A stretch of DNA of 64,000 nucleotides from Escherichia coli (GCF_024502345.1 NZ_JALDNN010000001.1); one strand, 5' to 3'; counted from the first letter of the stretch, positions 1,266 to 62,780 are shown. The notes: generated by a model not told the origin, from the letters alone. Numbers and translations are program-made.

Positions 1266-1353
1266 TTTCTTCCTTCGGGTTCGAGTATGGCCCCGCAGGG
1301 GGGCGGATTTTAGCATAATATTTCGTGCGCTGCTTCCCTTTCGAGCCGGGAGA

Positions 1354-2457: not shown

Positions 2458-2460
2458 GGC

Positions 2461-2946
<486 letters not shown>

Positions 2947-3060
2947 TTACCCTGAACTGACGATACAACAAAGGCGCAACGCTTTTGAGATAAAGGATCG
3001 ATGCTTTCGCTGCTTTTACCCTCTACCATTAGGCTAATTGCGACGAGAAAGGGACGACCT

Positions 3061-3600
3061 ATGAATATTAACGTTTTTCGACTGATCCTGCTGGGAAGCC
3101 TATTCAGCCTTAGCGCCTGTGTGCAGCAAAGTGAAGTGCGACAGATGAAACACAGCGTCAGCACGCTGAACCAGGAGATGACGCAACTCAATCAAGAAAC
3201 AGTCAAAATCACTCAGCAAAACAGGCTGAATGCAAAATCCAGCAGTGGGGTTTACCTTCTGCCTGGAGCGAAAACACCGGCAAGACTGGAAAGCCAGATC
3301 GGTACTTTACGTATGTCGCTGGTGAATATTACGCCTGATACAGATGGCACCACCCTGACACTACGTATTCAGGGTGAGTCGAATGATCCCTTGCCCGCAT
3401 TCAGCGGAACTGTTGAATATGGGCAAATTCAGGGAACAATAGACAACTTTCAGGAAATCAATGTACAGAATCAATTGATTAATGCCCCTGCCAGCGTCCT
3501 CGCCCCCAGCGATGTTGATATTCCGTTACAGTTAAAGGGGATTTCTGTGGATCAGTTAGGCTTTGTACGTATCCACGACATTCAACCTGTTATGCAGTAA
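3061..3600 (+). CDS. yajI: lipoprotein YajI
   Basis: Track ORF 3001..3600; lipoprotein signal peptide MNINVFRLILLGSLFSLSAC (lipobox LSAC) begins at 3061. Confidence 0.85.
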   Translation: MNINVFRLILLGSLFSLSACVQQSEVRQMKHSVSTLNQEMTQLNQETVKITQQNRLNAKSSSGVYLLPGAKTPARLESQIGTLRMSLVNITPDTDGTTLTLRIQGESNDPLPAFSGTVEYGQIQGTIDNFQEINVQNQLINAPASVLAPSDVDIPLQLKGISVDQLGFVRIHDIQPVMQ

Positions 3601-3898
3601 ACGTATAGCGGGGCGATTTTGTGCGTCCCGCAACATCCTTCCCCATCATTTTGTTACTCCGCTTACATAACCCAGATTGATAGTAAAAGTTTGCAACAAG
3701 GGCGAAAGTCAGTACAATCCCCGCCCGAATGTGTGTAAACGTGAACGCAATCGATTACGTAAATGATAGAACTGTGAAACGAAACATATTTTTGTGAGCA
3801 ATGATTTTTATAATAGGCTCCTCTGTATACGAAATATTTAGAAACGCAATTTGCGCCTTTTTCACTCCCGCAAGGGATTTTCAAACAGTGGCATACAT

Positions 3899-4783
3899 AT
3901 GAAAAAAACATTACTGGCAGCCGGTGCGGTACTGGCGCTCTCTTCGTCTTTTACTGTCAACGCAGCTGAAAACGACAAACCGCAGTATCTTTCCGACTGG
4001 TGGCACCAGAGCGTTAACGTTGTCGGAAGCTATCACACCCGTTTCGGACCGCAGATCCGCAACGATACCTACCTTGAGTACGAAGCATTCGCTAAAAAAG
4101 ACTGGTTCGACTTCTATGGTTATGCGGATGCGCCGGTATTCTTCGGCGGTAACTCCGATGCAAAAGGTATCTGGAACCACGGTTCTCCGCTGTTTATGGA
4201 AATCGAACCACGTTTCTCCATCGACAAGCTGACCAATACTGACCTTAGCTTCGGTCCGTTCAAAGAGTGGTACTTCGCGAACAACTACATTTACGACATG
4301 GGTCGTAATAAAGATGGTCGCCAGAGCACCTGGTACATGGGTCTGGGTACCGATATCGACACTGGCCTGCCGATGAGCCTGTCCATGAACGTCTATGCGA
4401 AATACCAGTGGCAGAACTATGGCGCAGCGAACGAAAACGAGTGGGACGGTTACCGTTTCAAAATTAAATACTTTGTGCCGATTACCGATCTGTGGGGCGG
4501 TCAGCTGAGCTACATCGGCTTTACCAACTTCGACTGGGGTTCCGATTTAGGGGATGACAGCGGTAACGCAATCAACGGTATTAAGACCCGTACTAATAAC
4601 TCTATCGCTTCCAGCCATATTCTGGCTCTGAACTACGATCACTGGCACTACTCTGTCGTAGCTCGTTACTGGCACGACGGTGGTCAGTGGAACGACGATG
4701 CAGAACTGAACTTCGGCAACGGCAACTTCAACGTTCGCTCTACCGGCTGGGGTGGTTACCTGGTAGTAGGTTACAACTTCTGA
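3899..4783 (+). CDS. tsx: nucleoside-specific outer membrane channel Tsx
   Basis: Track ORF 3851..4783; [25 protein letters not shown]... signal peptide starts at 3899; ends in aromatic residue (..VVGYNF) typical of OMPs; 294 aa. Confidence 0.95.
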
Positions 4784-4790
4784 TTATGAA

Positions 4791-4818
4791 AATGCCGGGA
4801 TTTATTCCCGGCATTTCA
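4791..4818 (+). terminator. rho-independent terminator of tsx
   Basis: Hairpin GCCGGGATTTATTCCCGGC (4794-4812) followed by ATTTCAG just after the tsx stop. Confidence 0.6.
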
Positions 4819-4844
4819 GATTGTTAACAACGTGCGCTTTGTTC

Positions 4845-4946
4845 ATGCCGGATGCGGCGTAAACGCTTTGTCCGGCCCACAAAAGCACGTAAATTCAATA
4901 TATTGCTGAAATAACGTAGGCCTGATAAGCGTAGCGCATCAGGCAA
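4845..4946. repeat. REP (repetitive extragenic palindrome) pair
   Basis: GCCGGATGCGGCGTAAACGCTTTGTCCGGC and GTAGGCCTGATAAGCGTAGCGCATCAGGC, canonical REP consensus, between convergent tsx and yajD. Confidence 0.8.
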
Positions 4947-4959
4947 TTTTACGTTTTAA

Positions 4960-5307
4960 TCACTTCTTCTTGTTCATCATCGCTTTCAGGTCAGCGAATG
5001 GGTTGTACTTCGCTTCACCGACATCTTTCTGCGCATCTTCCCCTGCGATAACGGTCGTACCATACTGATCCGCTTCGGTATATTTCGAATGCTCATGATC
5101 GTGGCAATAGAGACAAAGCAATTCCTAGTTACTGCCATCTTCCGGGTTATTGGTATGGTCGTGATCAATGTGGTGAACAGTAAGTTCACGCAGGTTGGAA
5201 TAGACAAACTCGCGGGAACAGCGACCGCAGACCCACGGATAGATTTTTAATGCTTTTTCGCGATAGCCGCTTTCTAACCGCGCATAGTTTTTTGGGATGA
5301 TAGCCAT
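4960..5307 (-). pseudogene. yajD: HNH-family protein YajD, interrupted by an in-frame amber codon (TAG at 5125-5127, minus strand)
   Basis: Track ORF 5125..5307 (60 aa, MAIIPKNYARLESGYREK...NNPEDGSN) stops at TAG; the same frame continues ELLCLYCH... to TGA at 4960-4962, giving the recalled 115 aa YajD length if read through. Confidence 0.75.
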
Positions 5308-5382
5308 GAAAAGTTACCTGGATGAAATGTAGAGTTACGCGCAGTTTCCCAAGATGCGGGGATTATCGCAATCTCCATACAT

Positions 5383-5414
5383 CAAAAAAAATCCCGATCT
5401 TCTGACCGGGATTT
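5383..5414 (-). terminator. rho-independent terminator downstream of secF
   Basis: Minus-strand hairpin AATCCCGGTCAGAAGATCGGGATT followed by a run of 8 T. Confidence 0.6.
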
Positions 5415-5435
5415 TCAACATCAACGGGAAATTGA

Positions 5436-6407
5436 TTAAGGCAGAATTGACGGCTGATCCGCTCCTTCTTTTTCCACTTTCTGCTGCAACATGTGTTCGC
5501 GCTTCATACCCAGTTTCAGAGCCAACGCAGATGCTACGTAGATGGAAGATGCAGTGCCGATGGAAACACCGATAAGCATGGTCAGCGAGAAGCCTTCCAG
5601 TACCGGACCACCGAAGAGATACAGCATCAGGATAACCATCAAGGTAGTACCGGATGTGATCAAGGTACGGTGCAGCGTCTGGGTCAAGGACACGTTAAAG
5701 ATTTCGTAAGGCGTACCGCGACGGATCTTGCGGAAGTTTTCACGAATACGGTCCGATACCACGATACTGTCGTTAAGCGAGTAACCGATAACCGACATCA
5801 ACGATGCCACAATGGTCAGGTCAATCTCGATATGGAATAACGACAAAATACCCAGCGTAATGATAACGTCGTGCGCCAGCGCAATAACCACCCCTGCCGC
5901 CAGTCGCCACTCAAAGCGGAAACCTACGTACACAAGGATAGACAGCAGCGCTGCCATCAACGCCATCGCACCGGTTTGCGCAAGGTCTGCCCCCACGCTC
6001 GGACCGACGAACTCAATACGCTTCACTGCTGCATTCTGATTGGTGGATTCGTTAATCACCTTCAGAACCTGGCTGCCCAGCACCTGACCGCCGGTTTCGC
6101 CTTCAGCAGGCGGCATACGGACCATGATGTCGTGGCTGCTACCAAAGTTTTGCAGCATCGGCTCTTCAAAACCGGCTTTTTGCAATGCATCACGCATTAC
6201 GTCAATTTCAGCCGGTTTTTCGAGCGTAATTTCGATAACCGTACCACCGGTGAAATCCAGCCCCCAGTTAAAGCCGCGCACGCCCATAATAACGATAGCA
6301 GCGATTAACAGCAGACCAGAGATGCCAAAAGCCCAGTAGTCCCAGCGCATAAAGTCATAGACTTTACGGCCGTGGTTTAGTTGTTCAACAGTATATTCCT
6401 GTGCCAC
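5436..6407 (-). CDS. secF: protein translocase subunit SecF
   Basis: Track ORF 5436..6452; recognised SecF N-terminus (V/M)[23 protein letters not shown] starts at a GTG at 6407, giving 323 aa. Confidence 0.9.
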
Positions 6408-6417
6408 ATCGCACTCC

Positions 6418-8265
6418 TCAGATTGACAGCTTCTTGACGCGCTTGCCGCCATATAGCAGGTTTACGATGGCACGCGTACCGACAATCGCGGTAAACATCG
6501 ACGTCGCCACACCGATACCGGTAGTAATCGCGAACCCTTTAATTGCCCCGGTACCCACTGCGTACAGGATGATGACTTTAATCAGCGTGGTGATGTTCGC
6601 ATCGAAGATAGAACTGAATGCGCCACGATAACCTTCATCAATTGCCTGTTGAACAGTACGTCCGTTGCTCAACTCTTCTTTAATACGTTCGTTGATCAGT
6701 ACGTTCGCATCGACCGCTACCGCAAGGGTTAAGACGATACCCGCGATACCTGGCATACTCAGTGTTGCGCCTGGCAACAGCGACATAATACCGACGATCA
6801 AGATCAAGTTGGCAATCAGAGCACTGGTCGCAATCAGACCAAACTTCTTATAGAAGATGATCATGAACAGAATAGAAACCAGCAGACCGGCAAGGCAAGC
6901 CTCCAGCCCCTGCTCAATGTTCTGCATACCCAGGGTCGGGCCAATTGTACGTTCTTCAACAATCTGAATCGGCGCGATCAACGCACCGGCACGCAGCAGC
7001 AGTGACAGCTGACGGGCTTCGTTCGGGTTGTTGATGCCGGTGATACGGAAGCTGTTACCCAGACGAGACTGGATGTTGGCGATGTTAATCACCTCTTCCT
7101 GTTTCACCAGAACCGCACGACCATTTGCATCTTTCTTACCGCTGTCTTTGTACTCCACAAACAGGGTTGCCATCGGTTTGCCGATGTTGTCCTTGGTGAA
7201 GTTAGACATAATGTTGCCACCAGCGCTATCGAGCGAGATGTTAACCTGCGGCTGGTTGTATTCGTCCTGGCTGGAAGTGGAGTCGGTGATATGGTCACCG
7301 GTAAGAATTACGCGTTTGTACAGCACAACCGGCTGACCTTCGCGGGTCTGTTTCACTTCAGAGTCGCCCGGTACGCGACCGGATGCCGCAGCGGCCTGAT
7401 CAACGTTGGTGTTTACCAGACGGAATTCCAGCGTTGCCGTCGCACCCAGAATCTCTTTCGCACGCGCAGTGTCCTGAATACCTGGCAGTTCAACAACGAT
7501 ACGGTCAGCACCCTGACGCTGAACCACCGGCTCCGCCACGCCAAGTTGGTTTACACGGTTACGCAGGATATTGATGTTCTGCTGCACCGCATATTCACGC
7601 GCTTCACTCAGACGAGCATCGCTCATTACCGCACGCAGCTGGTTGCTGCCCTGGCTACTAATCACCAGGTCCGGATGGCGCTTGCTCAGATACGCAATGG
7701 CTTCATCACGAGCTTTAGCATCGCGGAAAGTGATGCTCAGGCCGTAGTTGTTTTCTTTACGAACGGTGGTATACGGGATGCCCTTTTCGCGCAGGTCGCT
7801 GCGCAGGCTATCGATATTTTGTTCCTGGAGTTTGCCAAGCGCGGTGTCCATATCCACTTCCATCAGGAAGTGAACGCCGCCACGCAGGTCAAGGCCGAGC
7901 TTCATCGGCTCAGCGTGAATAGCTGCCAGCCAGCGCGGCGTTGCCGGGGCAAGGTTAAGCGCCACGACGTATTTGTCACCCATAACGCCCATTAATGCTT
8001 CACGAGCGCGCAGCTGGGTGTCAGTGGAGTCGAAGCGCGCAAGAATAGCGCCCTCTTCCAGTGCCACAGACTTAGCAGTTATTTTTTCTTCTTGTAACGT
8101 TTTCTGGACCTGGATCAGCGTTTGCTCACTGGCGGCGACTCCGCGCGCACCAGTGATCTGAACAGCCGGATCCTCACCAAACAGGTTGGGAAGCGCATAC
8201 AGCAGACCGATGACAATCACCACGATCAGCATGACGTACTTCCACAAAGGATAACGGTTTAACAC
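6418..8265 (-). CDS. secD: protein translocase subunit SecD
   Basis: Track ORF 615 aa, [39 protein letters not shown]... Confidence 0.95.
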
Positions 8266-8292
8266 GGCAATTCCCTTAGGGAAAAATTTTAA

Positions 8293-8625
8293 TTACAGCG
8301 CCTTCATGGTGCCTTTCGGCAGGACGGCAGCTACGAAGTCACGTTTAATAACTACTTCAGTGGTGTCATTCAGCGCGATAGCAATGTAGCCGTTTTCCGC
8401 TACTTTGGTTACGCGACCAACCAGGCCACCGTTCGTCAGAACTTCATCACCTTTGGCAATGGAGTCCATCAGCTTTTTGTGTTCTTTGGTGCGCTTCTGC
8501 TGTGGACGCAGGATCATGAAATAGAAAATCAGACCGAATACCACCAGCATCAAAATCAAAGACATCGGGCTACCTTGCGCCGGTGCACCCGTTGCCGCTA
8601 CCGCATCAGAAATAAAAAAGCTCAT
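8293..8625 (-). CDS. yajC: Sec translocon accessory subunit YajC
   Basis: Track ORF 8293..8655; recognised N-terminus MSFFISDAVAATGAPAQGSPMSLILMLVVFGLIFYFMILRPQQKR gives 110 aa. Confidence 0.9.
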   Translation of the reverse strand: MSFFISDAVAATGAPAQGSPMSLILMLVVFGLIFYFMILRPQQKRTKEHKKLMDSIAKGDEVLTNGGLVGRVTKVAENGYIAIALNDTTEVVIKRDFVAAVLPKGTMKAL

Positions 8626-8647
8626 TAAATTTCCCTCATTATTAATA

Positions 8648-9790
<1,143 letters not shown>

Positions 9791-9830
9791 TCAGAAAAAC
9801 AGTCCAACGTTTTAAACCAGCGCCGCGGAA

Positions 9831-10901
9831 TTACTCCCCGACGCGCTCATTAATTGCCTGCGGATTGTACGTGATAAACATCGCATCACCGTAACTAAAA
9901 AAGCGATATTTCTCTTCTACCGCTGCTTTATAGGCGTTCATGGTGTGTTGATAACCGGCAAAGGCCGAAACCAGCATAATCAGCGTCGATTCCGGCAGGT
10001 GGAAGTTTGTCACCAGCGCATCGACCACTTTGTACTGGAAGCCCGGATAGATAAAGATTTGGGTATCGTCAAAGAACGGTTCGATAAGATCGTTTTTCGC
10101 CGCCTGAGCCGCGCTTTCCAGCGAACGTACTGAGGTGGTGCCAACCGCAATCACCCGGTTACCGCGCGCTTTCGCCGCCAGTACCGCGTCTACCACATCC
10201 TGCGGCACTTCAGCGTATTCCGAGTGCATGATGTGATCTTCAATGGTGTCGACGCGCACCGGCTGGAAGGTGCCCGCACCAACGTGCAACGTCACAAACG
10301 CCATCTCCACGCCTTTGGCGCGTAATTTTTCCAGCAAAGGTTCGTCAAAATGCAGACCTGCGGTCGGGGCTGCAACCGCGCCCGGTTTTTCGCTATAAAC
10401 GGTTTGATAAAGTTCGCGGTCAGCGTCTTCGTCCGGACGGTCGATATACGGCGGCAGCGGCATATGGCCGATGCTATTGAGAATATCCAGCACCGAGCGT
10501 TCATCATTAAATTCGACTTCAAACAGTGCGCCGTGGCGCGCGGTCATTGTTGCGTTAATACTTTCGTCATCGCCCAGCAGCAGTTCTGCGCCAGGTTTTG
10601 GCGCTTTCGAGGCGCGAATATGCGCAAGAATGCGTTTGTCGTCGAGCATCCGTTCAACCAGCACTTCAATCTTGCCGCCGCTGGCTTTACGCCCAAACAG
10701 GCGCGCCGGGATCACGCGGGTATTATTAAAAACCAGAAGATCGCCGGGGTTGAGCTTATCAAGTAAATCGGTGAAAGTACCGTGCGTCAGCGCGCCCGTC
10801 GGCCCGTCCAGCGACAGTAAACGACAGCTACTGCGTTCAGGCATGGGATAGTGGGCAATCAGGGATTCGGGCAATTCAAAGGAGAAATCGGTAACGCGCA
10901 T
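9831..10901 (-). CDS. queA: S-adenosylmethionine:tRNA ribosyltransferase-isomerase QueA
   Basis: Track ORF 356 aa, [29 protein letters not shown]... Confidence 0.95.
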
Positions 10902-10993
10902 GACACTGACTCAGACTAAAATAAGAGGCGGGTAGTCTAGTGCCGGGGCGCTCTCCCTGCAACCTTTACCCCCTTTTGGATAGAATATAATCG

Positions 10994-11575
10994 ATGAATT
11001 TTTTAGCTCACCTGCATTTAGCCCATCTCGCGGAAAGCTCGCTTTCCGGCAATTTACTGGCTGATTTCGTACGCGGAAATCCTGAAGAAAGTTTTCCGCC
11101 CGACGTCGTGGCTGGCATTCATATGCATCGACGTATCGACGTATTAACCGACAATCTGCCGGAAGTCCGCGAAGCACGGGAATGGTTTCGTAGTGAAACT
11201 CGCCGCGTTGCGCCTATTACGCTGGATGTCATGTGGGATCACTTTCTTTCCCGCCACTGGTCGCAGCTGTCGCCGGACTTTCCGCTACAGGAATTTGTCT
11301 GTTATGCCCGCGAGCAAGTGATGACGATTTTGCCGGACTCACCGCCACGTTTTATCAATCTGAACAATTACTTGTGGTCAGAGCAGTGGCTGGTGCGCTA
11401 TCGCGATATGGATTTCATCCAGAACGTGTTAAACGGCATGGCAAGCCGCCGCCCACGTCTGGATGCCCTGCGTGACTCCTGGTACGATTTAGACGCTCAT
11501 TATGACGCCCTCGAAACCCGCTTCTGGCAGTTTTATCCGCGGATGATGGCGCAGGCGTCACACAAGGCGTTATAA
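10994..11575 (+). CDS. acpH: acyl carrier protein phosphodiesterase
   Basis: Track ORF 193 aa, [32 protein letters not shown]... Confidence 0.9.
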
Positions 11576-11579
11576 AACG

Positions 11580-13397
11580 TTAGTTCATCCATACCGTAGC
11601 CGAAATGGCAGGCAAAGCCAGAATCCCGTCAGTCAGTTGCCCATGCCCTTCTTTGCATTGCCATTGCACGGCATTGAGCAACGGTGACGCGGGTAGCACG
11701 ACTTCACAAGCTTCGCCACGGTTGATTGCCACCAGTACACGCTGCTGATTCAGCATGCGGACAAATACCACCACGTTATCTTCCGCATACAGCACCTGAC
11801 AGCCGCCATGACGTAGCGCCTGACTTTTCTTACGCAGCGCAATCATTCGCTGGTACAGCGCGAATAACGCCGTATCCTGCTTTTCCACCTGCCAGGGGAA
11901 CGGTTTACGGCAAAACGGATCGTTTTTGCCATCCAGTCCTACTTCATCACCGTAATAAATGCACGGTACACCAGGCCAGGTGAACAGCCAGACCACCGCC
12001 AGCGGCAGGCGCGCAATATCCCGACCGAGCAGCGTTTTAAATCGCGCAGTATCGTGGCTGTCGAGCTGATTAAACATACGTAATTGTTGTTGATGAGAAA
12101 GCCCTGCGCGGTAATTATCCATCCAGGCCATACAGGTTTGGGCATCAATTTGCTGCGGATCGTAAGAGATATCGGTATTGGCAAGAAATCCCCACAACGG
12201 GAATGTGAAGCCACGATAGTTCATGGCGGCATCTTCCACATCGGCCTGTAACCATTGCCGTGCATCGCCAAAATGTTCGCCGACAATATACGCTTCCGGC
12301 TGGGTTTCTTTCGCCGCTTCGGTGATCCCAGCAACGTGCTGCATATTATTGCGCGCCCCACCCGCCTCCCCTAGCATATGCACCACATCCAGCCGCCAGC
12401 CGTCCATACTCCACGGCGCTTTCAGCCAATGGCGGACAATACTGTCTTCCCCGCGATAAATTTCATTCACCAGACTTTCCGACTGATAATCCAGCTTCGG
12501 CAAGCTGGCATAGCCAAGCCAGTCGAGCGCCGTGCCATCATCACTAAACGAGTACCAGTCGCGCCAGGGCGATTCAGGGTTGTGACAAGCTCCCCCCGTG
12601 CCACGATTGTGCCTGTCAAACCAGGCATGGGAATCGCCACTGTGGTTAAACACGCCATCCAGCACCAGCCGCATTCCCAGCTGCTGCGTATTGTGGCGTA
12701 AGCGCAGCAACGCCCCATCACCGCCAAACTGCGGATCGACATGGCGATAATCCTCGGTATCGTATTTATGTACGCTGGGAGCTTTAAACACCGGATTGAG
12801 ATACAGCGCCGTCACGCCAAGCTTTTTCAGATACGGCAGTTTTTCGCTTATCCCGTCCAGATCGCCGCCATAGAACGTTGATCCGCCCGCCTGCGCCGTG
12901 ACCGGTTCATCCCAGTCACGCAAGATGATCTCTTGTCCGGCTGCATGATGGTAATAGACATGATCCTGTTCAGCTTCACGAGGAAGACTACGCGCAAAAC
13001 GATCAGGGAAGATCTGATAAAAAATCTGATCCGCAGCCCATTGTGGGCCGATATCCGGTACATCGACGGCAAACTGCTCCAGTCGTGCCGGCGGCATTCG
13101 GCTGAAGCCCTGCGGTGTAAACCAACGCTGGCGATCGTGCCACAGCAGTTTGAAACTGTAACGCCGCCGGGGTTGTCCGCTGGAGAGATCAATCGCCGCA
13201 CGCCATGCGGTGACGCCTGGCTGCGGCTGACTGCGCTGCTTATGCATTGGTACTGACATTTCTTCGTTATCGTGTTCTGTACGCAGCATAATGCGCTGCG
13301 GTGGGTCTTCGCCCGTCAGCCACAGTGTAATGAGCAGTTGATCTTTGCTTTGTTTAACAAATGGGGGCACCGGCAGGTGCCATGCATTTAACATCAT
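11580..13397 (-). CDS. malZ: maltodextrin glucosidase MalZ
   Basis: Track ORF 605 aa; GH13 alpha-amylase family motifs ([24 protein letters not shown]); position between acpH and proY. Confidence 0.9.
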
Positions 13398-13552
13398 AAT
13401 TCCCCTGTGATGAAAATCTGATCACCTTGCCATAGCCTAATGCAGGATCACTCATCATCTGAAGGATATTTGGGGGAGGAGGACGGGGGCGGATAACTTT
13501 CGGAATAGCCGGATCAGGATTTCCTCCTGAACCGGCTTACAGAACGCAAGTA

Positions 13553-14926
13553 TTATTGGTTTTCAGCCAGCTGACGATCGTGGCGACGCTTAAACATCCA
13601 GCCAATCAACAGCACAACAATCCACGCGAAACCGACATACAGCGAGATACGCGTATCCGGGTGATAACCAATCAACCCGATAATAAAGAGCAGGAAAATC
13701 AGCCCGCCGATGGTCGTTGCTACCCCACCCGGCACTTTAAATTTCAGCGCATTAACTTCTTCTGGCGGCAAACGGCGACGGAAGGCAATTTGCGACAGCA
13801 GGATCATAATCCACACCCACACCGTGGCGAAGGTTGCCAGCGAAGCGATCACCAGGAAGACGTTTTCCGGCATGATGTAGTTCAGATACACCGCAAACAG
13901 CAGCGCGGTAGTCATCACCAGCACCGTAACCCACGGAATACCGCGACGCGACGTTTTGCTGAAAATTTTCGGCGCGCTGCCCTGCTCTGCCATACCGTGG
14001 AGCATACGGCCTACGCCAAATACATCACTGTTAATTGCCGACAGCGAAGCAGTCAGCACAACAAAGTTAAGAATGCTGGCGGCAAAGGTAATGCCCATAT
14101 GCTGGAACGTCAGCACGAACGGGCTACCGGCAGTGCCAACCTGATTCCACGGGTAGATAGACATAATGACGAACAGCGTACCGACGTAGAACACCAGAAT
14201 ACGCATCGGCACGGAGTTAATCGCACGCGGTATCGATTTCTCAGGATCTTTCGCTTCACCGGCGGTAATCCCGATAATTTCGATCCCACCGTAAGCAAAC
14301 ATCACCATTTGCAACGACATTACCATGCCAAGCCAGCCGTTACTGAAGAAGCCGCCGTTGCTCCACAGGTTATGAATACCGGTCGGTTGCCCGCCGTTGC
14401 CAATCCCCCAGATGATGATGCCGAAACCGGCGACAATCATGATGATGATGGTGGCGACTTTAAAGAACGAGAACCAGAATTCCAGCTCACCGAAGACCTT
14501 CACGCTCATCAGGTTTACGGCGCAAATGATCAGCACCACGCTCAGTACCCAAATCCAGTGCGGCACCGTCGGGAACCAGACACCCATATAGATACCAAAA
14601 GCGGTCACATCGGCGATGGCGACAATAAGGATTTCAAAGCAGTAGGTCCATCCGGTAATGTAACCTGCCAGCGGGCCGAGGTTTTCCTGCGCATAACGCG
14701 AGAAAGAGCTGGCGGCCGGGTTATGTACCGACATTTCCCCCAGCGCACGCATAATGATATACGCCGCGATACCACCGATAATATAGGCCAACAACACGCT
14801 CGGACCGGCCATTTTGATGGCGTCTGCCGAACCGTAAAACAGCCCGGTGCCAATTGCTGAACCCAGTGCCATAAAGCGTATGTGGCGGGTACTTAGCCCA
14901 CGCTTTAGCTTGTTCTTACTTTCCAT
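13553..14926 (-). CDS. proY: proline-specific permease ProY (APC family)
   Basis: Track ORF 13553..14929 (MMESKNK...); taking the second Met gives the 457 aa amino acid permease. Confidence 0.9.
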
Positions 14927-27510: not shown

Positions 27511-27717
27511 TGCACGCCACCATTCATCATCTGATTTATCTTTTATCGTAGCCAGTTCCGCAACAATATCTGGAGATCTTCACTGATATTTATATCAACC
27601 TTGATAAATTATGAATATATCGGAAATTGAAAAAATCGCAGCAAAGGAAATATTATTATGGGTTAAAGAAAGGATATTTCAGAAAAATGCCCTCCCGTTC
27701 AAGGGGAAGGCGAGGAA

Positions 27718-41739: not shown

Positions 41740-44743
<3,004 letters not shown>

Positions 44744-49764: not shown

Positions 49765-50066
49765 GATTGTCTGCTCCCCTGTCTTGTTATGGGAGCAGTA
49801 TTTCGTTGCGGGTCAGTTTGATAAAGGAATTAAAAGGTCTTGTTAAGAACAAAGCGTTTTTAGAAAAAAATCGGCAATGGTTAGCGAGTTTGCGCATTTT
49901 GCGGTTTTGGCGAACGTATCCCGCCGGTTCACAAGCCAGATAAGATGTGCGCGCTCCGGCAAATTATTGCCATTTTGTTACATCCATTCCATATCTGTCG
50001 CTGGTTGATTGCCAGCGCCGCGCCGTGATGCATGATAGGAGAATTAGATAATAAGAGAAGAAAAGT

Positions 50067-50696
50067 ATGATTCGGGTAGTGCTGGTGGATGACCATGTGG
50101 TGGTGCGCTCTGGCTTCGCACAATTACTCTCTCTGGAAGACGATCTGGAGGTCATTGGTCAGTACAGTAGTGCCGCGCAGGCATGGTCGGCATTAATCCG
50201 TGATGACGTCAATGTTGCCGTCATTGATATTGCCATGCCGGACGAAAACGGCCTCAGTTTGCTTAAGCGCCTGCGTGCACAAAAACCGCAATTTCGCGCC
50301 ATTATTCTTAGCATTTATGACGCGCCAACCTTTGTGCAAAGCGCGCTGGATGCCGGTGCCAGCGGGTATTTAACCAAACGCTGTGGGCCGGAAGAGTTAG
50401 TACAGGCGGTGCGCTCGGTCGGGCTGGGCGGGCATTATCTCTGTGCCGATGCGATTCGGGCTTTACGCGGCGGCGGGCAACCCGCCCAGGCGCTGGAAAT
50501 TCTCACCCCACGAGAACGTGAAGTGTTTGATTTACTGGTCAAAGGAGACAGCGTTAAAGAGATCGCCTTTAAACTCGAACTCAGTCATAAAACGGTACAT
50601 GTGCATCGCGCCAATGTGCTGGGAAAACTGAACTGCCATAGCACCATTGAACTGGTACATTTTGCGCTCGACCACCATCTGCTGGCGGGGCATTAA
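50067..50696 (+). CDS. UhpA-like response regulator (NarL/FixJ family, LuxR-type HTH)
   Basis: Track ORF 209 aa, MIRVVLVDDHVVVRSGFAQLL...; receiver domain with DD..D and C-terminal HTH (KEIAFKLELSHKTVHVHRANVLGKL); aligns along its length with recalled UhpA. Confidence 0.85.
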   Translation: MIRVVLVDDHVVVRSGFAQLLSLEDDLEVIGQYSSAAQAWSALIRDDVNVAVIDIAMPDENGLSLLKRLRAQKPQFRAIILSIYDAPTFVQSALDAGASGYLTKRCGPEELVQAVRSVGLGGHYLCADAIRALRGGGQPAQALEILTPREREVFDLLVKGDSVKEIAFKLELSHKTVHVHRANVLGKLNCHSTIELVHFALDHHLLAGH

Positions 50697-52237
50697 TGTC
50701 GCGCAATCTTCGTCATTGGGTGATTTCGCTGTTTATTGTGCTGGCCTGGGGAACCGGCTGGCTGATGCTGTGGACGCTCAGCTTTTATCTGACCAATAAC
50801 GGTCAACAGGCGGTGTTGTTTCTCCCGCAGGGAGTTTATCTCGCCCTTGTTATTTTGCTCTCTCGCCGCTACTGGCCTGCGTTGGTGCTCCCCCCTTTGC
50901 TGATGATGTTCTGGCTCCATAGTGAACAGCTATTGAACGGTTATCTCATGCTGGCAACGCCGGTTATTAGCCTGTTTCCTGTCCTCCTTGCGCAAAACTT
51001 CTGGCACCGTTTTCCACTTTACTGGCAGCGTCTGACGTTGCTGTTAGCCACTGTCACGGCAGCTTCATTGTTGAATACCGCCCTGCTCTCCCCTTTTATG
51101 TCAGGCCCAATAATGCTGCCGGGTTTGACCTCATTTACCGGCGGCGTATTACTGACGCCGTTTGTCTATCTTATCTTTGAGTTTCTGCGCCAGCAGCATC
51201 GCTACCAGCTCCTGGGACTCGATACGCATAATCCCCCCTTGCGTACCTCTTTAATCATCTGGTGTAGCCTGTTTTTTATTATTGGTATCGGCACTCAGAT
51301 GGTGCTGTCACCTGAAATTGAACGTCTGCTGTTGATCGTGGTCTTTTTGCCCAATGTGGTGATGGCGTGGAAATTTGGCTGGCAAGGTGGCGTACTCTCC
51401 GGGCTTTTGGGCAGCATGATGATCACCATCGCCCGCCAGATTGGCGTGGGCTTTAGTAACCTGGTGGAGCTGGAGATTTTCCTCGCGACCCAGGCCTTGC
51501 TGGGAATTGGCCTGGGCATTGCCATCAGTCGCCAGCAACATCTGGCGCTAAACCTGCACCATTACCGACAACGGCTGGAGGCCGAGCTGGCAGCGCGGCG
51601 GGCATTGGCGGAAAAGCTGATCCACACCGAGGAGGACACGCGAAAAAACCTGGCGCGAGAGCTGCACGACGAAATCGGTCAGAACATCACCGCCATTCAG
51701 ATCCAGTCGCAACTGGTGAAGCGGGCGCGTGATCCGGCGCAAATTCAATCCGCAGCCAGCCAAATCAATGAGCTCGCCCGCCGCATTCATCTCTCCACCC
51801 GCCAATTGCTGCGCCAGTTGCGGCCTCCCGCGCTTGATGAACTGACATTTCGCGAAGCGTTGCTGCATCTGATTAATGAATTTGCCTTTAGTGAACGCGG
51901 CATTCATTGCCAGTTTGCCTATCAACTGAACTCCACACCAGAAAACGAAACGGTGCGCTTTACCTTGTATCGGTTATTGCAGGAGTTGCTCAATAACATC
52001 TGTAAACACGCCGAAGCCAGCGAAGTGACGATTATCCTGCGCCAGCAGGGAGAGGTATTGCATCTGGAAGTCAGCGACAACGGTGTGGGGATCGCCAGCG
52101 GGAAAATGGCCGGATTTGGCATTCAGGGGATGCGTGAGCGCGTCAGCGCCCTGGGCGGCGACTTAACGCTCGAAAAACAGCACGGCACGCGGGTAATTGT
52201 TAACTTGCCCACATTTTTGCAACAAATCGCCGGATAA
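50696..52237 (+). CDS. UhpB-like sensor histidine kinase (MASE1-type membrane domain, HisKA_3, HATPase)
   Basis: Track ORF 513 aa; multiple N-terminal TM helices, H-box ELHDEIGQNITAI, ATP-binding region; start overlaps the stop of the upstream regulator. Confidence 0.85.
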   Translation: MSRNLRHWVISLFIVLAWGTGWLMLWTLSFYLTNNGQQAVLFLPQGVYLALVILLSRRYWPALVLPPLLMMFWLHSEQLLNGYLMLATPVISLFPVLLAQNFWHRFPLYWQRLTLLLATVTAASLLNTALLSPFMSGPIMLPGLTSFTGGVLLTPFVYLIFEFLRQQHRYQLLGLDTHNPPLRTSLIIWCSLFFIIGIGTQMVLSPEIERLLLIVVFLPNVVMAWKFGWQGGVLSGLLGSMMITIARQIGVGFSNLVELEIFLATQALLGIGLGIAISRQQHLALNLHHYRQRLEAELAARRALAEKLIHTEEDTRKNLARELHDEIGQNITAIQIQSQLVKRARDPAQIQSAASQINELARRIHLSTRQLLRQLRPPALDELTFREALLHLINEFAFSERGIHCQFAYQLNSTPENETVRFTLYRLLQELLNNICKHAEASEVTIILRQQGEVLHLEVSDNGVGIASGKMAGFGIQGMRERVSALGGDLTLEKQHGTRVIVNLPTFLQQIAG

Positions 52238-52309
52238 CCAGGAAAAAGTCTTAGGTATCCCGGATTTTCTCTCATCCCCTTTCACTTTCATTTTCATATA
52301 GTCAGCAAC

Positions 52310-53626
52310 ATGGAGACAACCATGCACGCGCGTTCAGCGAGAGAAATTAATCAATGCTACCGGACATTACGTCCGCGATTGCTGATGTGCATGATTATTG
52401 GCTACGCCGCATTTTATCTGACGCGAAAAAGCGTGAATTACGTCCTTCCGGCGCTACAAACCGACCTCGGACTGGATAAAGGCGACATTGGCCTGCTGGG
52501 TTCGCTGTTTTATCTCAGCTACGGATTGTCGAAATTTACCGCCGGACTGTGGCATGACAGCCATGGACAACGCGGTTTTATGGGCGTCGGCTTGTTCGCC
52601 ACCGGGTTATTGAACGTGGTGTTTGCCTTTGGCGAATCACTTACGCTTCTGCTTGTGGTCTGGACACTGAACGGTTTTTTTCAGGGCTGGGGATGGCCAC
52701 CGTGTGCCCGCTTGCTGACCCACTGGTACTCACGCAATGAGCGCGGTTTCTGGTGGGGCTGCTGGAATATGTCGATCAACATTGGCGGAGCGATTATTCC
52801 GCTGATTAGCGCCTTTGCCGCCCACTGGTGGGGCTGGCAGGCCGCGATGCTGACACCGGGGATAATCAGCATGGCATTAGGGATCTGGTTAACGCTACAA
52901 CTCAAAGGCACGCCCCAGGAAGAGGGATTACCGACAGTTGGTCACTGGCGTCACGATCCGCTGGAGTTACGTCAGGAACAACAAAGTCCGCCGATGGGGC
53001 TGTGGCAAATGTTGCGCACCACCATGCTGCAAAATCCGCTGATCTGGCTACTGGGCGTCTCTTATGTACTGGTTTATGTGATCCGGATTGCGCTTAACGA
53101 CTGGGGCAATATCTGGCTGACGGAAAGCCACGGTGTCAACCTGCTCAGCGCCAACGCCACGGTAATGCTGTTTGAAGTGGGCGGCTTACTCGGCGCGTTA
53201 TTTGCCGGATGGGGATCGGATTTGCTGTTTAGCGGGCAACGAGCGCCAATGATTTTGCTGTTCACGTTGGGGTTGATGGTGTCAGTCGCCGCACTGTGGC
53301 TGGCACCGGTTCATCACTACGCTCTGCTGGCAGTGTGCTTTTTTACCGTGGGCTTTTTCGTCTTTGGCCCACAAATGCTGATTGGACTTGCGGCGGTGGA
53401 GTGTGGGCACAAAGCTGCGGCGGGTTCAATCACCGGATTTCTCGGCCTGTTCGCTTACCTTGGCGCGGCGCTGGCAGGCTGGCCGCTGTCGCTGGTCATC
53501 GAACGCTACGGCTGGCCGGGAATGTTCAGTTTACTCTCGGTCGCCGCAGTACTTATGGGTTTACTGCTGATGCCGTTACTGATGGCGGGCATCACCACCA
53601 CTCACGCTCGAAGGATAAAACAATGA
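52310..53626 (+). CDS. UhpC-like MFS membrane protein (putative sugar-phosphate sensor)
   Basis: Track ORF 438 aa; organophosphate:Pi antiporter-type MFS motifs (YLTRKS, FFQGWGWPPCARLLTHWYS), similar in length and sequence to recalled UhpC. Confidence 0.8.
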   Translation: METTMHARSAREINQCYRTLRPRLLMCMIIGYAAFYLTRKSVNYVLPALQTDLGLDKGDIGLLGSLFYLSYGLSKFTAGLWHDSHGQRGFMGVGLFATGLLNVVFAFGESLTLLLVVWTLNGFFQGWGWPPCARLLTHWYSRNERGFWWGCWNMSINIGGAIIPLISAFAAHWWGWQAAMLTPGIISMALGIWLTLQLKGTPQEEGLPTVGHWRHDPLELRQEQQSPPMGLWQMLRTTMLQNPLIWLLGVSYVLVYVIRIALNDWGNIWLTESHGVNLLSANATVMLFEVGGLLGALFAGWGSDLLFSGQRAPMILLFTLGLMVSVAALWLAPVHHYALLAVCFFTVGFFVFGPQMLIGLAAVECGHKAAAGSITGFLGLFAYLGAALAGWPLSLVIERYGWPGMFSLLSVAAVLMGLLLMPLLMAGITTTHARRIKQ

Positions 53627-54654
53627 AAATGACCTTTACCTCTACTCTGATTGCTTCTGCCGTTGCGCTGGCGACTTTAACGGGTGCCGCGCAGGCAAAA
53701 GGCCGGCTGGTGGTCTATTGCAGCGCCACCAATGAAATGTGTGAGGCCGAAACCAAAGCGTTTGGCGAGAAATATGATGTAAAAACCTCGTTTATCCGCA
53801 ACGGTTCCGGAAGCACCCTGGCAAAAGTCGATGCTGAAAAGAAAAACCCCCAGGCTGACGTCTGGTACGGCGGCACTTTAGACCCGCAATCGCAGGCTGG
53901 CGAGATGGGCCTGCTACAGGCGTATAAATCCCCTAACCTTGAGCAGATCATGGAGAAATTCCGCGATCCGGCAAAAGTGAAAGGGAATCTGTCCTCTGCC
54001 GTTTATGTGGGGATCCTCGGTTTTGGCGTAAACACCGATCGTCTGAAAGAGAAAAACCTGCCGGTGCCGAAGTGCTGGAAAGATCTCACCAAACCGGAAT
54101 ATAAAGGCGAAATTCAAATTGCCGATCCGCAAAGTTCCGGTACTGCCTACACCGCCCTGGCTACTTTTGCGCAGCTGTGGGGGGAAGATCAGGCCTTTGA
54201 TTATCTAAAACAACTGAACGCCAACGTCTCTCAGTACACCAAATCAGGCATAGCCCCGGCACGTAACGCCGCCCGTGGCGAAACGGCGATTGGTATTGGC
54301 TTCCTGCATGACTACTCGCTGGAAAAAGAACAGGGCGCGCCGCTGGAGTTGATTTCCCCGTGTGAAGGTACGGGCTACGAAATTGGCGGCGTCAGCATTC
54401 TGAAAGGCGCGCGCAACCTCGACAACGCCAAACTGTTTGTGGACTGGGTATTATCAAAAGAAGCTCAGGAACTGGCGTGGAAGAAAGGGAAGTCTTATCA
54501 GATCCTGACCAATACCACCGCCGAAACGTCGCCAAATTCGCTGAAGCTCGACGACCTGAAATTAATCAACTACGACATGGATAAATATGGTTCCACGGAT
54601 GTTCGTAAGGCATTGATTAATAAATGGGTCAGCGAAGTGAAGATGGGTAAATAA
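53623..54654 (+). CDS. afuA: AfuA/FbpA-type periplasmic substrate-binding protein of an ABC importer
   Basis: In-frame ATG at 53623 within track ORF 53296..54654 gives 343 aa with signal peptide MKMTFTSTLIASAVALATLTGAAQA; ATG overlaps the stop of the UhpC-like gene (ATGA). Confidence 0.8.
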   Translation: MKMTFTSTLIASAVALATLTGAAQAKGRLVVYCSATNEMCEAETKAFGEKYDVKTSFIRNGSGSTLAKVDAEKKNPQADVWYGGTLDPQSQAGEMGLLQAYKSPNLEQIMEKFRDPAKVKGNLSSAVYVGILGFGVNTDRLKEKNLPVPKCWKDLTKPEYKGEIQIADPQSSGTAYTALATFAQLWGEDQAFDYLKQLNANVSQYTKSGIAPARNAARGETAIGIGFLHDYSLEKEQGAPLELISPCEGTGYEIGGVSILKGARNLDNAKLFVDWVLSKEAQELAWKKGKSYQILTNTTAETSPNSLKLDDLKLINYDMDKYGSTDVRKALINKWVSEVKMGK

Positions 54655-54722
54655 ACCCGCATTAGGCGTATTTGCCGGGTGCAGCACAAACGCCTGCCCC
54701 GGCCAACCATACCGGAACTACT

Positions 54723-56801
54723 ATGTCACAGACACTTGCACTCCATCCCGTGAAAAAGCGGGATGCGATTTTCCTTTGGGTTTTACTGGGCTGGCTGGCA
54801 TTTATACTGTTGCCGAGCTGGAGCCTCGATTATGGCCTGCTGGAGTCCACGAGTGATGAGATCCTCGAGGCTTATGGCTGGTCGCATTTTAATATCAGCT
54901 GGCTGTGGTATTTACTCCCGAGCCTGTTGCTGGTTCGCCCGTTTCGTGAGGCCACGCGCGAACAGCGTAGTCGTCATTATTTTGATGCCAGCTGGGCATT
55001 GCTCTGTATGGCGTTTATCGTCATCAGCGCCACCGTGGCTGGACGCGGTTTAGGCTACGCCGCCATCGTGCTGTTTGTTGAACTAGGCGCGATTATGACG
55101 CTGGCCTTAACCCGCCTCGAATGGCTGGGCGGCGACCGCTTCGTGATCGGCTCACTGATTGCGATTGTGGCGCTGATTGGCATTTTTATCGTCTGGCCGA
55201 GCATCGCCATTTTTATCCCGATGTTCACCAACGACGCGGGAGAGTTCGCCCCGCTGGCGTTTATGACCGTGCTCTCGCAGGCACATATTGTTCAGGTGAT
55301 CGTCAACTCTATCGTCTTGTCGATAGCGGTGGGGATAGGCTGTACTTTCTTCGGCCTGGTGCTGGCGATTTATACCACGCGCATCGCTAAACGCAGCGCC
55401 ATTATTGGTCGCATCTTTTCCATTTTGCCCATCGTTACGCCACCGTTTGTGGTCGGCTTAGGCGTGACGCTCATGATGGGGCGCTCCGGCTATGTTACGG
55501 AATTTATGGTGGAGTGGTTTGGGCTGACCAACACCAACTGGCTGTACGGTTTTACCGGGATCTGGCTGGCACAGGTTCTGGCATTCACGCCAATGGCATT
55601 TATGATCCTCGACGGGGCCATTAAAACCATTCATCCCTCGCTGGAAGAGGCCTCCTACACCCTGCGCGCCAGCCGCTGGCAAACCTTTAACGGCGTGTTT
55701 GTGCCGTTGTTGAAGCCCGCACTCGCCAATGCCTTTTTAATCGTCGTGGTACAGTCACTGGCTGATTTCAGTAACCCGCTGGTACTTGGCGGTAACTTCG
55801 ACGTACTGGCGACGCAAATTTACTTCTATATTACCGGCTCGCAGCTGGATTATCAGGCCGCCAGCACGCTTGGCGCTTTCCTGCTGCTGTTCTCGCTGCT
55901 GGTGTTCTGCATCCAGTATATGTGGATTGGTAAACGCTCTTACGTCACGGTTTCCGGCAAATCCTACCGTGGCGACGTCCAGCCGCTACCGGTCACCCTG
56001 GTGTGGAGCGTGGTCGCCATACTTGCGATATGGATTGCCTTTAACGCCCTGCTCTACGGCAGCATTTTCTACGGCAGCTTCACGGTGAACTGGGGCGTGG
56101 ACTACACCCTGACGCTGGATAACTTTATCAAGCTATTTGGTCAGGGAATGAGCGACGGCGCGTGGCCTTCACTGCTGGATACCCTGCTCTACGCCGGGAT
56201 TGCCGCTCCCATTACCGCTATCTTTGGCCTGCTCATCGCCTGGGTGGTGGTGCGTCAACAATTCAAAGGCAAAAAGACCATCGAGTTCACCACCATGCTG
56301 TGCTTTGCCGTACCGGGTACGGTGGCGGGCGTTTCGTATATTCTTGCCTTTAACAGCGCTCCGGTTTATCTCACCGGAACGGCGGCAATTGTGATTATCT
56401 CGATGGTGATGCGTAACGTTCCGGTGGGTATTCGCGCCGGGATTGCGGGTCTGGGGCAGATCGACAAATCGCTGGATGAAGCCTCACTCAGCCTGCGCGC
56501 GGGTTCCTTGCGAACCATAACCCACATTTTACTGCCGCTGCTGCGTCCGGCCATTCTCTCGGCCCTGATCTACAGCTTTGTGCGGGCCATCACGACGGTC
56601 AGCGCCATCGTCTTTCTCGTCACGCCGGACACCCGCGTGGCAACCGCCTACATTCTTAACCGCGTTGAAGACGGCGAATATGGCGTAGCCATCGCCTATG
56701 GTTCGATTCTGATCGTGGTGATGCTGGCGATTATTTTCCTCTTTGACTGGCTGATCGGAGAAGCTCGTATCTCCCGTTCTAAAGCCAAAAACAAGGCGTA
56801 A
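54723..56801 (+). CDS. afuB: AfuB/FbpB-type ABC permease with two fused transmembrane domains
   Basis: Track ORF 54672..56801 starts at a TTG; first ATG at 54723 (MSQTLALHP...) gives about 692 aa; duplicated ABC permease modules; the alternative start at 54672 cannot be excluded. Confidence 0.8.
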
Positions 56802-57859
56802 TGGAGCGCACTATGAGTCAGAAAAATTTTGTTGAACTGCGCAACGTCACTAAACGATTCGGCAGTAATACGGTTATCGACAATATCAATCTCACCATTC
56901 CACAAGGGCAAATGGTGACGCTGCTCGGTCCTTCCGGCTGTGGCAAAACCACCATTTTGCGTCTGGTTGCCGGGCTGGAAAAACCGAGCGAAGGGCAAAT
57001 TTTTATTGATGGCGAAGATGTCACGCATCGTTCCATTCAACAGCGCGATATCTGCATGGTGTTTCAGTCATACGCTCTGTTCCCGCATATGTCGCTGGGT
57101 GAAAACGTTGGCTACGGGCTGAAGATGCTTGGCGTCTCGCGTAGCGAAGTGAAACAGCGGGTGAAGGAGGCGCTGGCAATGGTGGATCTGGAAGGCTTCG
57201 AGGACCGCTATGTCGATCAGATTTCCGGTGGTCAGCAACAGCGTGTGGCACTGGCCCGCGCGTTGATCCTCAAGCCAAAGGTGCTGCTGTTTGATGAGCC
57301 GTTAAGTAACCTCGATGCCAACCTGCGCCGCAGTATGCGCGATAAGATCCGCGAGCTGCAAAAGCAGTTTAATATCACGTCGCTCTACGTCACTCACGAT
57401 CAAAGTGAAGCTTTCGCGGTGTCCGACACTGTGCTGGTGATGAATAAAGGTCACATCATGCAGATTGGCTCACCGCAGGATCTCTATCGTCAGCCAGCCT
57501 CCCGATTTATGGCAAGTTTTATGGGCGACGCCAACCTGTTCCCGGCGAACTTTAGCGAAGAGTATGTCGATATCTACGGTTATCGCCTGCCGCGCGCGGC
57601 GCATTTCCCGGCGCAAGGTAGCGGCACCGTCGGCGTTCGCCCGGAAGCCATCACCTTAAGCAATCACGGCGAAGAGAGTCAGCGTTGTGTTATTCGCCAT
57701 GTCGCCTACATGGGGCCGCAGTACGAAGTGACCGTAGAGTGGCATGGACAGGAGATTTTATTACAAGTAAACGCCACCCGTTTACAGCCCGATATTGGTG
57801 AGCACTATTACCTCGAAATCCATCCTTACGGGATGTTTGTTTTAGCGGATACGGCATAA
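56801..57859 (+). CDS. afuC: AfuC/FbpC-type ABC transporter ATP-binding protein
   Basis: Track ORF 352 aa; Walker [10 protein letters not shown], signature [14 protein letters not shown], Walker [11 protein letters not shown]-terminal TOBE-like regulatory domain; ATG overlaps the afuB stop (TAATG); a start at 56813 with a GGAG RBS is also possible. Confidence 0.85.
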
Positions 57860-57873
57860 AAATAGCACATAAA

Positions 57874-57900
57874 CGGTCCCCATCTGTCTTGAGGGACCGT
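57874..57900 (+). terminator. possible terminator hairpin after afuC
   Basis: GGTCCC-N12-GGGACC stem-loop 15 bp after the afuC stop; no strong T-tract. Confidence 0.4.
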
Positions 57901-57943
57901 TCACCTGGTTAGGCTTCGGACAACAATTATTCTCCAGTGTTAT

Positions 57944-57992
57944 ATACTATAGGGGGGTATGTATTGACATATAGCATACCCCCCTATAGTAT
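57944..57992 (+). promoter_or_regulatory. frmRAB promoter/operator: long inverted repeat with G6/C6 tracts
   Basis: ATACTATAGGGGGGTATG-(12 bp with TTGACA)-CATACCCCCCTATAGTAT, near-perfect 18-bp arms 27 bp upstream of the frmR ATG; matches the TACT-G6-N-AGTA type RcnR/FrmR operator. Confidence 0.75.
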
Positions 57993-58018
57993 ATTGCGTG
58001 CAGATGATGAGGTGCGAA

Positions 58019-62432: not shown

Positions 62433-62780
62433 ATGTAGGCCGGATAAGGCGTTCACGCCGCATCCGGCAGTCGTGTGCAGATGCCTGATGCGACGCTTGC
62501 GCGTCTTATCAGGCCTACAAATTCCCGCGCCATCCGTAGGCCGGACAAGACGTTTGCGCCGCATCTGGCAGTCGTGCGCAGATGCCTGATGCGACGCTAA
62601 CGCGTCTTATCAGGCCTACAAATTCCCGCGCCATCCGTAGGCCGGATAAGGCGTTCACGCCGCATCCGGCAGTCGTGCGCAGATGCCTGATGCGACGCTA
62701 ACGCGTCTTATCAGGCCTACAAATTCTCGCGCCATCCGTAGGCCGGATAAGGCGTTCACGCCGCATCCGGCAGTCGTGCT
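62433..62780. repeat. BIME: array of about seven alternating REP units (about 3.5 tandem doublets of roughly 100 bp)
   Basis: Repeated GTAGGCCGGATAAGGCGTTCACGCCGCATCCGGCAGTCGTG and GATGCCTGATGCGACGCT(A/T)(A/G)CGCGTCTTATCAGGCCTAC units with near-identical copies between mhpT and mhpE. Confidence 0.85.

Follow-up and report, generated by a model that had tools for sequence, protein, structure and literature searches.

The O-island 20 cassette of Escherichia coli joins a Uhp-like sensory system to the sugar-phosphate importer AfuABC and may act as a sugar-phosphate-sensing unit

A 64,000-nucleotide stretch of Escherichia coli DNA (GCF_024502345.1, NZ_JALDNN010000001.1; the window, in which all positions are counted) contains six open reading frames (ORFs), all on the + strand, that span positions 50067-57859, with the tauABCD operon, transcribed divergently, on one side and frmR-frmA-fghA on the other. 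A preliminary description of this DNA had placed six co-oriented genes at these limits, and all six were found there. The block is the O-island 20 cassette fusR-fusK-z0461-afuA-afuB-afuC, encoding a response regulator, a sensor kinase, a major facilitator superfamily (MFS) protein and the three components of an ATP-binding cassette (ABC) importer. The homology of the regulator, the kinase, the MFS protein and an internal promoter to the Uhp system, taken together with the substrate range of the importer, makes a sugar-phosphate-sensor model the most economical one for the cassette in general, and we regard this model as reasonably probable. A wider proposition is put forward more tentatively. 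FusK, FusR and Z0461 would ancestrally, and perhaps still primarily, be a Uhp-type sensor of external hexose or heptose phosphates, the fucose response and the repression of the enterocyte effacement locus (LEE) in enterohaemorrhagic E. coli (EHEC) would be secondary or indirect, and the cassette would be old and vertically retained at tauA in Enterobacteriaceae, as opposed to a recent gain specific to EHEC.

The identity of the block was established by comparison with known genomes. Its DNA is 99.2% identical over 8124 nucleotides to that of O157:H7 EDL933 and of many other O157:H7 genomes, with which it shares the tauA-frmR position and the gene order. The six proteins are 99-100% identical to their O157:H7 counterparts (99.5% for the regulator, 100% for the MFS protein), and O-island 20 of EDL933 differs from the window block by a few amino-acid changes only. 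The closest alleles (99.7-99.9%) belong to strains not labelled O157, for example the chicken strain L26 and one of type O169:H41. In EHEC, afuABC is described as sitting on O-island 20 alongside the FusKR two-component system (Sit 2015, PMC4546632). As a genome feature the block, not identified with this island in the preliminary description, is thus already known, each half having its own primary paper. Gene limits follow RefSeq, as annotated for an O157:H7 locus of 99.2% identity, where the context reads tauA / response regulator / histidine kinase / uhpC / substrate-binding protein / permease / fbpC / frmR. All coordinates are collected in Table 1.

The first three products were compared with those of the canonical uhp locus. 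The regulator shares 48% identity with K-12 UhpA (E=2e-60). The kinase, which aligns with UhpB over the full length at 35% identity (E=7e-72), has an identical architecture, made of the Pfam domains MASE1 (5e-60), HisKA_3 and HATPase_c. The best NCBIfam models are those of UhpA for the regulator (NF007685, 193 bits for a cut-off of 258, not passed) and of UhpB for the kinase (NF008649, 382 bits, just short of the cut-off of 408). Because both stay under the equivalog cut-offs, they are to be seen as paralogues and not as canonical UhpA and UhpB. The MFS protein, 53% identical to UhpC (E=4e-164) as compared to 29% for UhpT, passes its top-ranking NCBIfam model, that of UhpC (NF008661), with 587.7 bits for a cut-off of 564. 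The resemblance to UhpA, UhpB and UhpC proposed in the preliminary description therefore holds, in the sense of paralogy.

To follow the corresponding genes in other species, a scan was made with one genome per species; it returned an AfuA relative in 348 species, and the best 80 loci, all from Enterobacterales, are those for which the gene order is given below. The phospho-acceptor Asp54 of the regulator is invariant in 79 loci and His324 of the kinase in 82 loci. In the aligned helix-turn-helix region, the stretch KTVHVHRAN, probably the DNA-recognition helix, is identical in FusR and UhpA. Arg39 and Arg259 of the MFS protein match two arginines that are conserved in the transporter family, where they presumably bind phosphate, and both are invariant in 83 loci. 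Such invariance would suit an organophosphate ligand better than fucose.

The six genes form a conserved unit. The order regulator-kinase-MFS-AfuA-AfuB-AfuC is complete in 73 of these loci; the remaining seven of the 80 are cut off within the cassette by the end of the stored sequence, and no locus departs from the order. One further metagenome contig shows the identical six-gene order. The genera sampled include Citrobacter, Klebsiella, Raoultella, Enterobacter, Serratia, Buttiauxella, Rahnella, Erwinia, Pantoea, Yersinia and Brenneria, among others. No UhpT homologue was detected in the window block or in the 80 Enterobacterales loci, in agreement with the earlier remark that an importer takes the place of the antiporter. 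In 29 other Enterobacteriaceae species the cassette adjoins tauA divergently, as in the window. Between Citrobacter amalonaticus and the window, the cassette proteins are 88-98% identical, a divergence comparable to that of TauA (96%) and TauB (91%). These comparisons argue for an old locus that would have been differentially retained or recombined, rather than one confined to O157:H7 or taken from Enterococcus faecalis. Both of the latter views occur in reviews, the origin from E. faecalis being given there as a possibility. Such statements would need correction: the cassette occurs in no fewer than 80 species of Enterobacterales, as well as in non-O157 E. coli.

Outside this order, three Pasteurellaceae genomes carry afuABC alone, the regulator-kinase-MFS trio being missing. 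The combination of sensor and importer is therefore lineage-specific, though ancient, and the term chimera used in the preliminary description is acceptable in this limited sense only. In two of the three Pasteurellaceae loci, those of [Pasteurella] aerogenes (record 8001-10181) and Basfia (record 8001-10161), the afu operon contains two tandem binding-protein genes. The second copy may be a binder of the vitamin B6 type.

The importer half of the cassette was examined next to its characterized relatives. By phmmer, AfuA matches the Actinobacillus pleuropneumoniae AfuA structures (PDB 4r72-4r75) with E=1.5e-169, and by tblastn it is 74% identical to an Actinobacillus AfuA. His229, Asp230 and Glu253 align with the sugar-coordinating His/Asp/Glu motif and are invariant in 87 loci; the triad was defined in the work on AfuA of Sit 2015 (PMC4546632). 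The same study showed that AfuABC imports glucose-6-phosphate and fructose-6-phosphate as well as sedoheptulose-7-phosphate, using the A. pleuropneumoniae and Citrobacter rodentium systems, and that it contributes to the colonisation and transmission of C. rodentium. With either operon, uptake of glucose-6-phosphate and fructose-6-phosphate allowed a uhpT mutant to grow. The C. rodentium orthologue, >83% identical to that of EHEC, binds glucose-6-phosphate and complements a uhpT deletion (PMC4546632). Both characterized systems have the His/Asp/Glu motif, a fused two-domain permease and an ATPase, as in the window. Overall, the sugar-phosphate reading of AfuABC already given in the preliminary description is borne out by the structure match, the motif and the published transport. 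In the window and in 32 loci, z0461 and afuA overlap by 4 nucleotides, and in almost all others they are at most about 60 nucleotides apart.

The spacer between fusK and z0461 is 73 nucleotides long and strongly conserved between genera. To compare it with the K-12 uhpT promoter, the -10 hexamer was set at -12 to -7, a numbering that places the uhpT CAP site at -103.5, its reported position, and that predicts a transcription start at about 52309 in the cassette. When the -10 hexamers were superposed, an ungapped alignment of the two promoters gave 54 identities over 121 positions, as compared to 31.4 ± 4.8 for shuffled sequences (z ~4.7); none of 5000 shuffles reached 54, and offset 0 was the best among 61 offsets. 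A CRP-like site within the 3' end of fusK lies 91 nucleotides from the -10 hexamer, identical to the distance of the CAP site in the K-12 uhpT promoter. Third-codon positions within this site have a conservation of 0.98 (79 loci) as compared to 0.61 in the preceding 60 nucleotides of fusK, which indicates a constraint on the DNA itself, beyond the protein.

A palindrome directly follows the kinase stop codon in 76 of 79 loci. It is unique in the 64-kb window, for 0.13 chance matches expected, and no additional copy that might have indicated autoregulation or a site before afuA was found within one mismatch across the 64 kb. The response-regulator sites of uhpT presumably extend from about -80 to -32, so that the cassette palindrome, near -63, would fall in the region of the UhpA strong site. 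UhpA is described as having adjacent strong and weak sites (review). CCAGG...CCTGG repeats are found in both promoters, though with a different spacing, CCAGG-N7/8-CCTRG in the cassette and CCAGG-N5-CCTGG in uhpT. The uhpT promoter further shares with the cassette the CRP site at -103.5, upstream inverted repeats, TCTCA at -39 and the absence of a -35. Indeed, no -35 element could be recognized in the cassette promoter, and a sigma-70 scan yielded no full promoter before z0461. From these features we infer that z0461-afuABC is one operon behind a FusR- and CRP-dependent, activator-type promoter homologous to that of uhpT. The published 29-nucleotide FusR site of the ler promoter was also searched for in the cassette promoter and rejected; at most 15 of the 29 positions matched, an unremarkable value as 57 window positions reach at least 16.

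A mechanism can be proposed on this basis. An external hexose or heptose phosphate would be recognized by the UhpC-like protein Z0461, which would turn the MASE1 kinase FusK to its kinase mode. Phospho-FusR would then bind the palindrome near -63 of the CRP-assisted uhpT-type promoter, and z0461-afuABC would be transcribed as one operon. Sugar phosphates would in this way be scavenged with high affinity at the expense of ATP and, unlike with UhpT, independently of phosphate exchange. In EHEC, the same regulator would have been recruited, in line with the literature, to repress LEE, along with the reported response to fucose.

Among the closest known systems, UhpABC-UhpT has a regulator, a MASE1 kinase and an MFS co-sensor that are homologous to those of the cassette. 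Its target is the antiporter UhpT, whereas the target in the cassette would be an ABC importer. The inducible promoter also differs in its position: it follows the uhpC gene in the Uhp system but precedes the UhpC-like gene in the cassette, where the co-sensor would be self-induced. A likeness in logic alone exists with Gram-positive bacteria, in which a two-component system with an extracytoplasmic accessory sensor controls sugar-phosphate uptake. HptRSA-UhpT of Staphylococcus aureus is such a sugar-phosphate sensor system, and SpsRK of Bacillus cereus is another one (PMC4049939). The arrangement is mirrored: a binding-protein-like sensor goes with an MFS transporter there, and an MFS-like sensor with a binding-protein-dependent transporter here.

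Other substrates have to be considered for the importer. Database names favour ferric iron, with 'ferric ABC transporter ATP-binding protein' as a protein name, 'Fe3+ transport system' in PDB titles and 'fbpC' in RefSeq; the last three genes would then serve Afu/Fbp-type iron uptake, and an unrelated sensor would be coupled to iron acquisition. As compared to its match with the sugar-phosphate-bound structures, AfuA is only distantly related to the ferric binders HitA (2e-12) and FbpA (4e-11). Moreover, the HitA stretch NNYYW aligns opposite GFLHD of AfuA, its two tyrosines, which we take to be the iron ligands, facing Leu228 and His229. Binding and transport of sugar phosphates by AfuABC have in addition been demonstrated (Sit 2015, PMC4546632). 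The comparisons thus support a grouping of AfuA with the sugar-phosphate binders and not with ferric FbpA, and ferric uptake, hardly credible in our view, was rejected on account of the structure matches and of the Leu-His pair opposite the tyrosines. An importer that drifted to another organophosphate, either pyridoxal-5-phosphate, as P5PA of Actinobacillus, or 2-aminoethylphosphonate, is very improbable too. P5PA (PDB 6wce; PMC8427247) is of the same binding-protein family as the window protein, has a comparable type of operon and matches AfuA at E=1.5e-109, and PhnS2 and PhnU2 are the top NCBIfam models for AfuA and AfuB. However, the scores fall far short of the cut-offs (238 for 393 with PhnS2, 250 for 593 with PhnU2), and P5PA carries Ala at the positions where the window protein retains Asp230 and Glu253, which makes the latter of the sugar-phosphate type; the ligand and complementation data on the C. 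rodentium orthologue point in the same direction. Neither a grouping of AfuA with ferric FbpA nor a canonical uhpABC accompanied by uhpT in the block, the two outcomes that the preliminary description had opposed to its own proposal, was observed.

The signal is a more difficult matter, because control of z0461-afuABC by hexose phosphates through a UhpC-like co-sensor would be in tension with the fucose model of the literature. On a literal reading of the latter, FusK would sense L-fucose directly, phosphorylated FusR would act negatively on z0461, the fuc genes and ler/LEE, Z0461 would serve to import fucose, and afuABC would be a mere neighbour on the island, a nutrient transporter not tied to the sensor by regulation. 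Pacheco, in 2012, reportedly presented FusKR as a fucose-sensing system. To our knowledge, in no experiment was afuABC seen to be induced by sugar phosphates or to depend on fusKR or z0461. This weighs against the sugar-phosphate-sensor model, as do several further points. The CRP site, the FusR operator and the start of transcription are only predicted, by alignment and conservation. The scores of regulator and kinase below the NCBIfam UhpA and UhpB cut-offs may reflect a divergence of signal or specificity. In a 2024 review, a 2016 paper and a 2016 review, the MASE1 kinase FusK (Z0462) is reported to sense fucose and to autophosphorylate with L-fucose. FusR (Z0463) is likewise reported, in reviews and later papers, to repress ler/LEE, the fuc genes and z0461, that is, not to activate. 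A 2018 transcriptome paper has FusKR regulating z0461, and z0461 as necessary for optimal fucose import. The fucose model, as presented in these four sources, belongs to the experimental literature, in which fusK mutants are also reported to be attenuated in vivo. Sit 2015 (PMC4546632) also handles FusKR as a separate neighbouring system. Within the literature searched, which left most subscription journals outside, this is the only paper to name FusK together with UhpB or afuA together with uhpC, and it proposes no regulatory link.

Several observations nevertheless make the fucose model, taken at face value, rather unlikely. Z0461 belongs to the organophosphate:phosphate antiporter family, in which a neutral deoxy-sugar would be an unusual substrate, and it keeps both arginines while passing the UhpC cut-off. 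Recognition of the ligand in the Uhp system falls to the MFS partner UhpC and not to the kinase (review); assays with FusK alone would therefore miss a signal of the UhpC type. The position of z0461, overlapping afuA and preceded by a uhpT-like promoter, also fits poorly with afuABC being a mere neighbour. Finally, Erwinia, Pantoea, Brenneria, Rahnella and Pectobacterium, genera that are plant-associated or environmental, keep the six genes as one unit. LEE is not known beyond a small set of attaching-and-effacing enteric pathogens, so that its control can hardly be the ancestral role of the cassette.

Within E. coli, the distribution of the cassette is patchy. The complete block was found in 518 of 5426 complete genomes (~9.5%), many of them O157:H7 or O55:H7, with O145, O169:H41 and unlabelled strains from pig, chicken, cattle and human as further carriers. 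The canonical uhpABCT genes are present in 5415 of the 5426 genomes. The cassette is therefore a second system, nearly all of its 518 carriers owning both, and a reading of the block as the canonical uhp locus was rejected on this count. The term strain-specific, used in the preliminary description, is consequently appropriate inside the species but not across Enterobacterales, where the cassette is a conserved unit found at tauA in 29 other species. In other strains the tauA-frmR interval has the yaiS-yaiP-yaiX-yaiO content that the same description had given for K-12, and the limits of the variable segment were obtained by comparison with one of them, E57 (Table 1).

At the ends of the block in the window locus, no flanking direct repeats, insertion sequence (IS) ends, integrase or mobility genes were detected. 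Composition, for which a comparison with the flanks had been suggested, showed no anomaly: the GC content is 0.535 in the block for 0.518 in the window, and that of third-codon positions is similar to the tau genes. Alleles at 90-95% identity were found in 68 records. Two such island-borne alleles (92-94%) were examined, in E. coli PI12 (record 3379-13928) and E. coli CE0026a (record 3631-12887); a tyrosine integrase adjoins the cassette in both, once at tRNA-Phe and once near ulaD, and mmuPM follows in one. K-12 and its relatives have only an IS1-truncated afuB'-afuC remnant (85.5%) beside mmuPM, as in E. coli H7 (record 5288-7407). The integrase-flanked alleles and the K-12-type remnant show that the cassette also moves on integrative islands. 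Besides, 45 matching places are on plasmids.

Table 1. Coordinates of the cassette genes, of predicted sites and of the segment limits in the window.
Feature	Position	Strand	Remarks
Variable segment replacing yaiS-yaiP-yaiX-yaiO of other strains	49803-57926	.	blastn against strain E57: homology ends at 49802 and restarts at 57927
Cassette core common to the divergent (92-94%) island-borne alleles	49973-57881	+	positions 171-8079 of 49803-57926 match
Sigma-70-like promoter candidate TTGCCA-16-CATGAT, upstream of the regulator gene	50009-50036	+	consensus scan 9/12; pattern match only
fusR (Z0463-type)	50067-50696	+	NarL/FixJ-family response regulator, UhpA paralogue
fusK (Z0462-type)	50696-52237	+	MASE1-HisKA_3-HATPase_c sensor kinase, UhpB paralogue
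CRP-like 16-mer TGTTAACTTGCCCACA in the fusK 3' end	52198-52213	+	centre at -103.5 from the predicted start
Palindrome CCAGGAAAAAGTCTTAGG, perfect as CTAGGAATAATTCCTAG in other genera	52238-52255	+	centre near -63; proposed FusR operator (predicted)
Invariant element TCTCATCC	52270-52277	+	-39 to -32; counterpart in the uhpT promoter: TCTCAGGC
-10 hexamer TATAGT	52297-52302	+	conserved across loci
z0461-type MFS gene, organophosphate:phosphate antiporter family, UhpC paralogue	52310-53626	+	probable true start 52322
afuA	53623-54654	+	periplasmic sugar-phosphate-binding protein; 4-nucleotide overlap between its start and the MFS stop codon
afuB	54723-56801	+	fused two-domain ABC permease; NCBIfam permease families each match two stretches; RefSeq annotation
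afuC (annotated fbpC)	56813-57859	+	ABC ATPase; NCBIfam NF008513, 699 bits for a cut-off of 496; RefSeq annotation
8-bp perfect hairpin ACGGTCCC...GGGACCGT	57873-57900	+	14 nucleotides 3' of the afuC stop; no T-run; read by eye, tentative

Some details of the gene models can be added. The starts of afuB and afuC are slightly downstream of those of the longest ORFs, a minor correction to the preliminary gene models. For the MFS gene, RefSeq uses one of two starts depending on the strain, 52310 or 52322. Since transcription is predicted to begin at about 52309, the first ATG would be leaderless; the second one is preceded by GGAG and is probably the true start. The hairpin behind afuC is a possible, tentative candidate for the end of the operon. 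An Rfam scan gave no match within the six-gene block, the sole matches in the window being three tandem copies of a naRNA4 (REP/BIME-type) element at 62438-62717.

Other features of the window were noted outside the cassette. Directly upstream of frmR is a perfect 20-nucleotide inverted repeat, ATATACTATAGGGGGGTATG / CATACCCCCCTATAGTATAT (57942-57994), which overlaps with a strong promoter-like site. This repeat, found also in cassette-free strains, is core sequence and presumably corresponds to the FrmR operator. Between iprA and hemB, an autotransporter gene (41761-44743, - strand) is broken into the ORFs 43409-44743 and 41761-43188, which a stop codon separates. At that place strain L26 has one coding sequence of 992 amino acids, to which window positions 43030-44662 could not be aligned by megablast; the passenger domain is therefore divergent or the gene is a pseudogene. 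Two segments of L26 are also missing from the window: one of 1.7 kb, carrying a hypothetical gene, between acpH and malZ (at about 11570-11580), and one of about 1.9 kb in the region of a DUF2773 gene (at about 27570-27576).

If the sugar-phosphate-sensor model is true, the fucose story of FusKR and the story of AfuABC would be those of one system, in which a sugar-phosphate sensor, acting through a uhpT-like promoter, drives a sugar-phosphate importer. The signal assigned to a well-cited virulence regulator of EHEC would then need revision, and the model would explain how afuABC is switched on in the gut.

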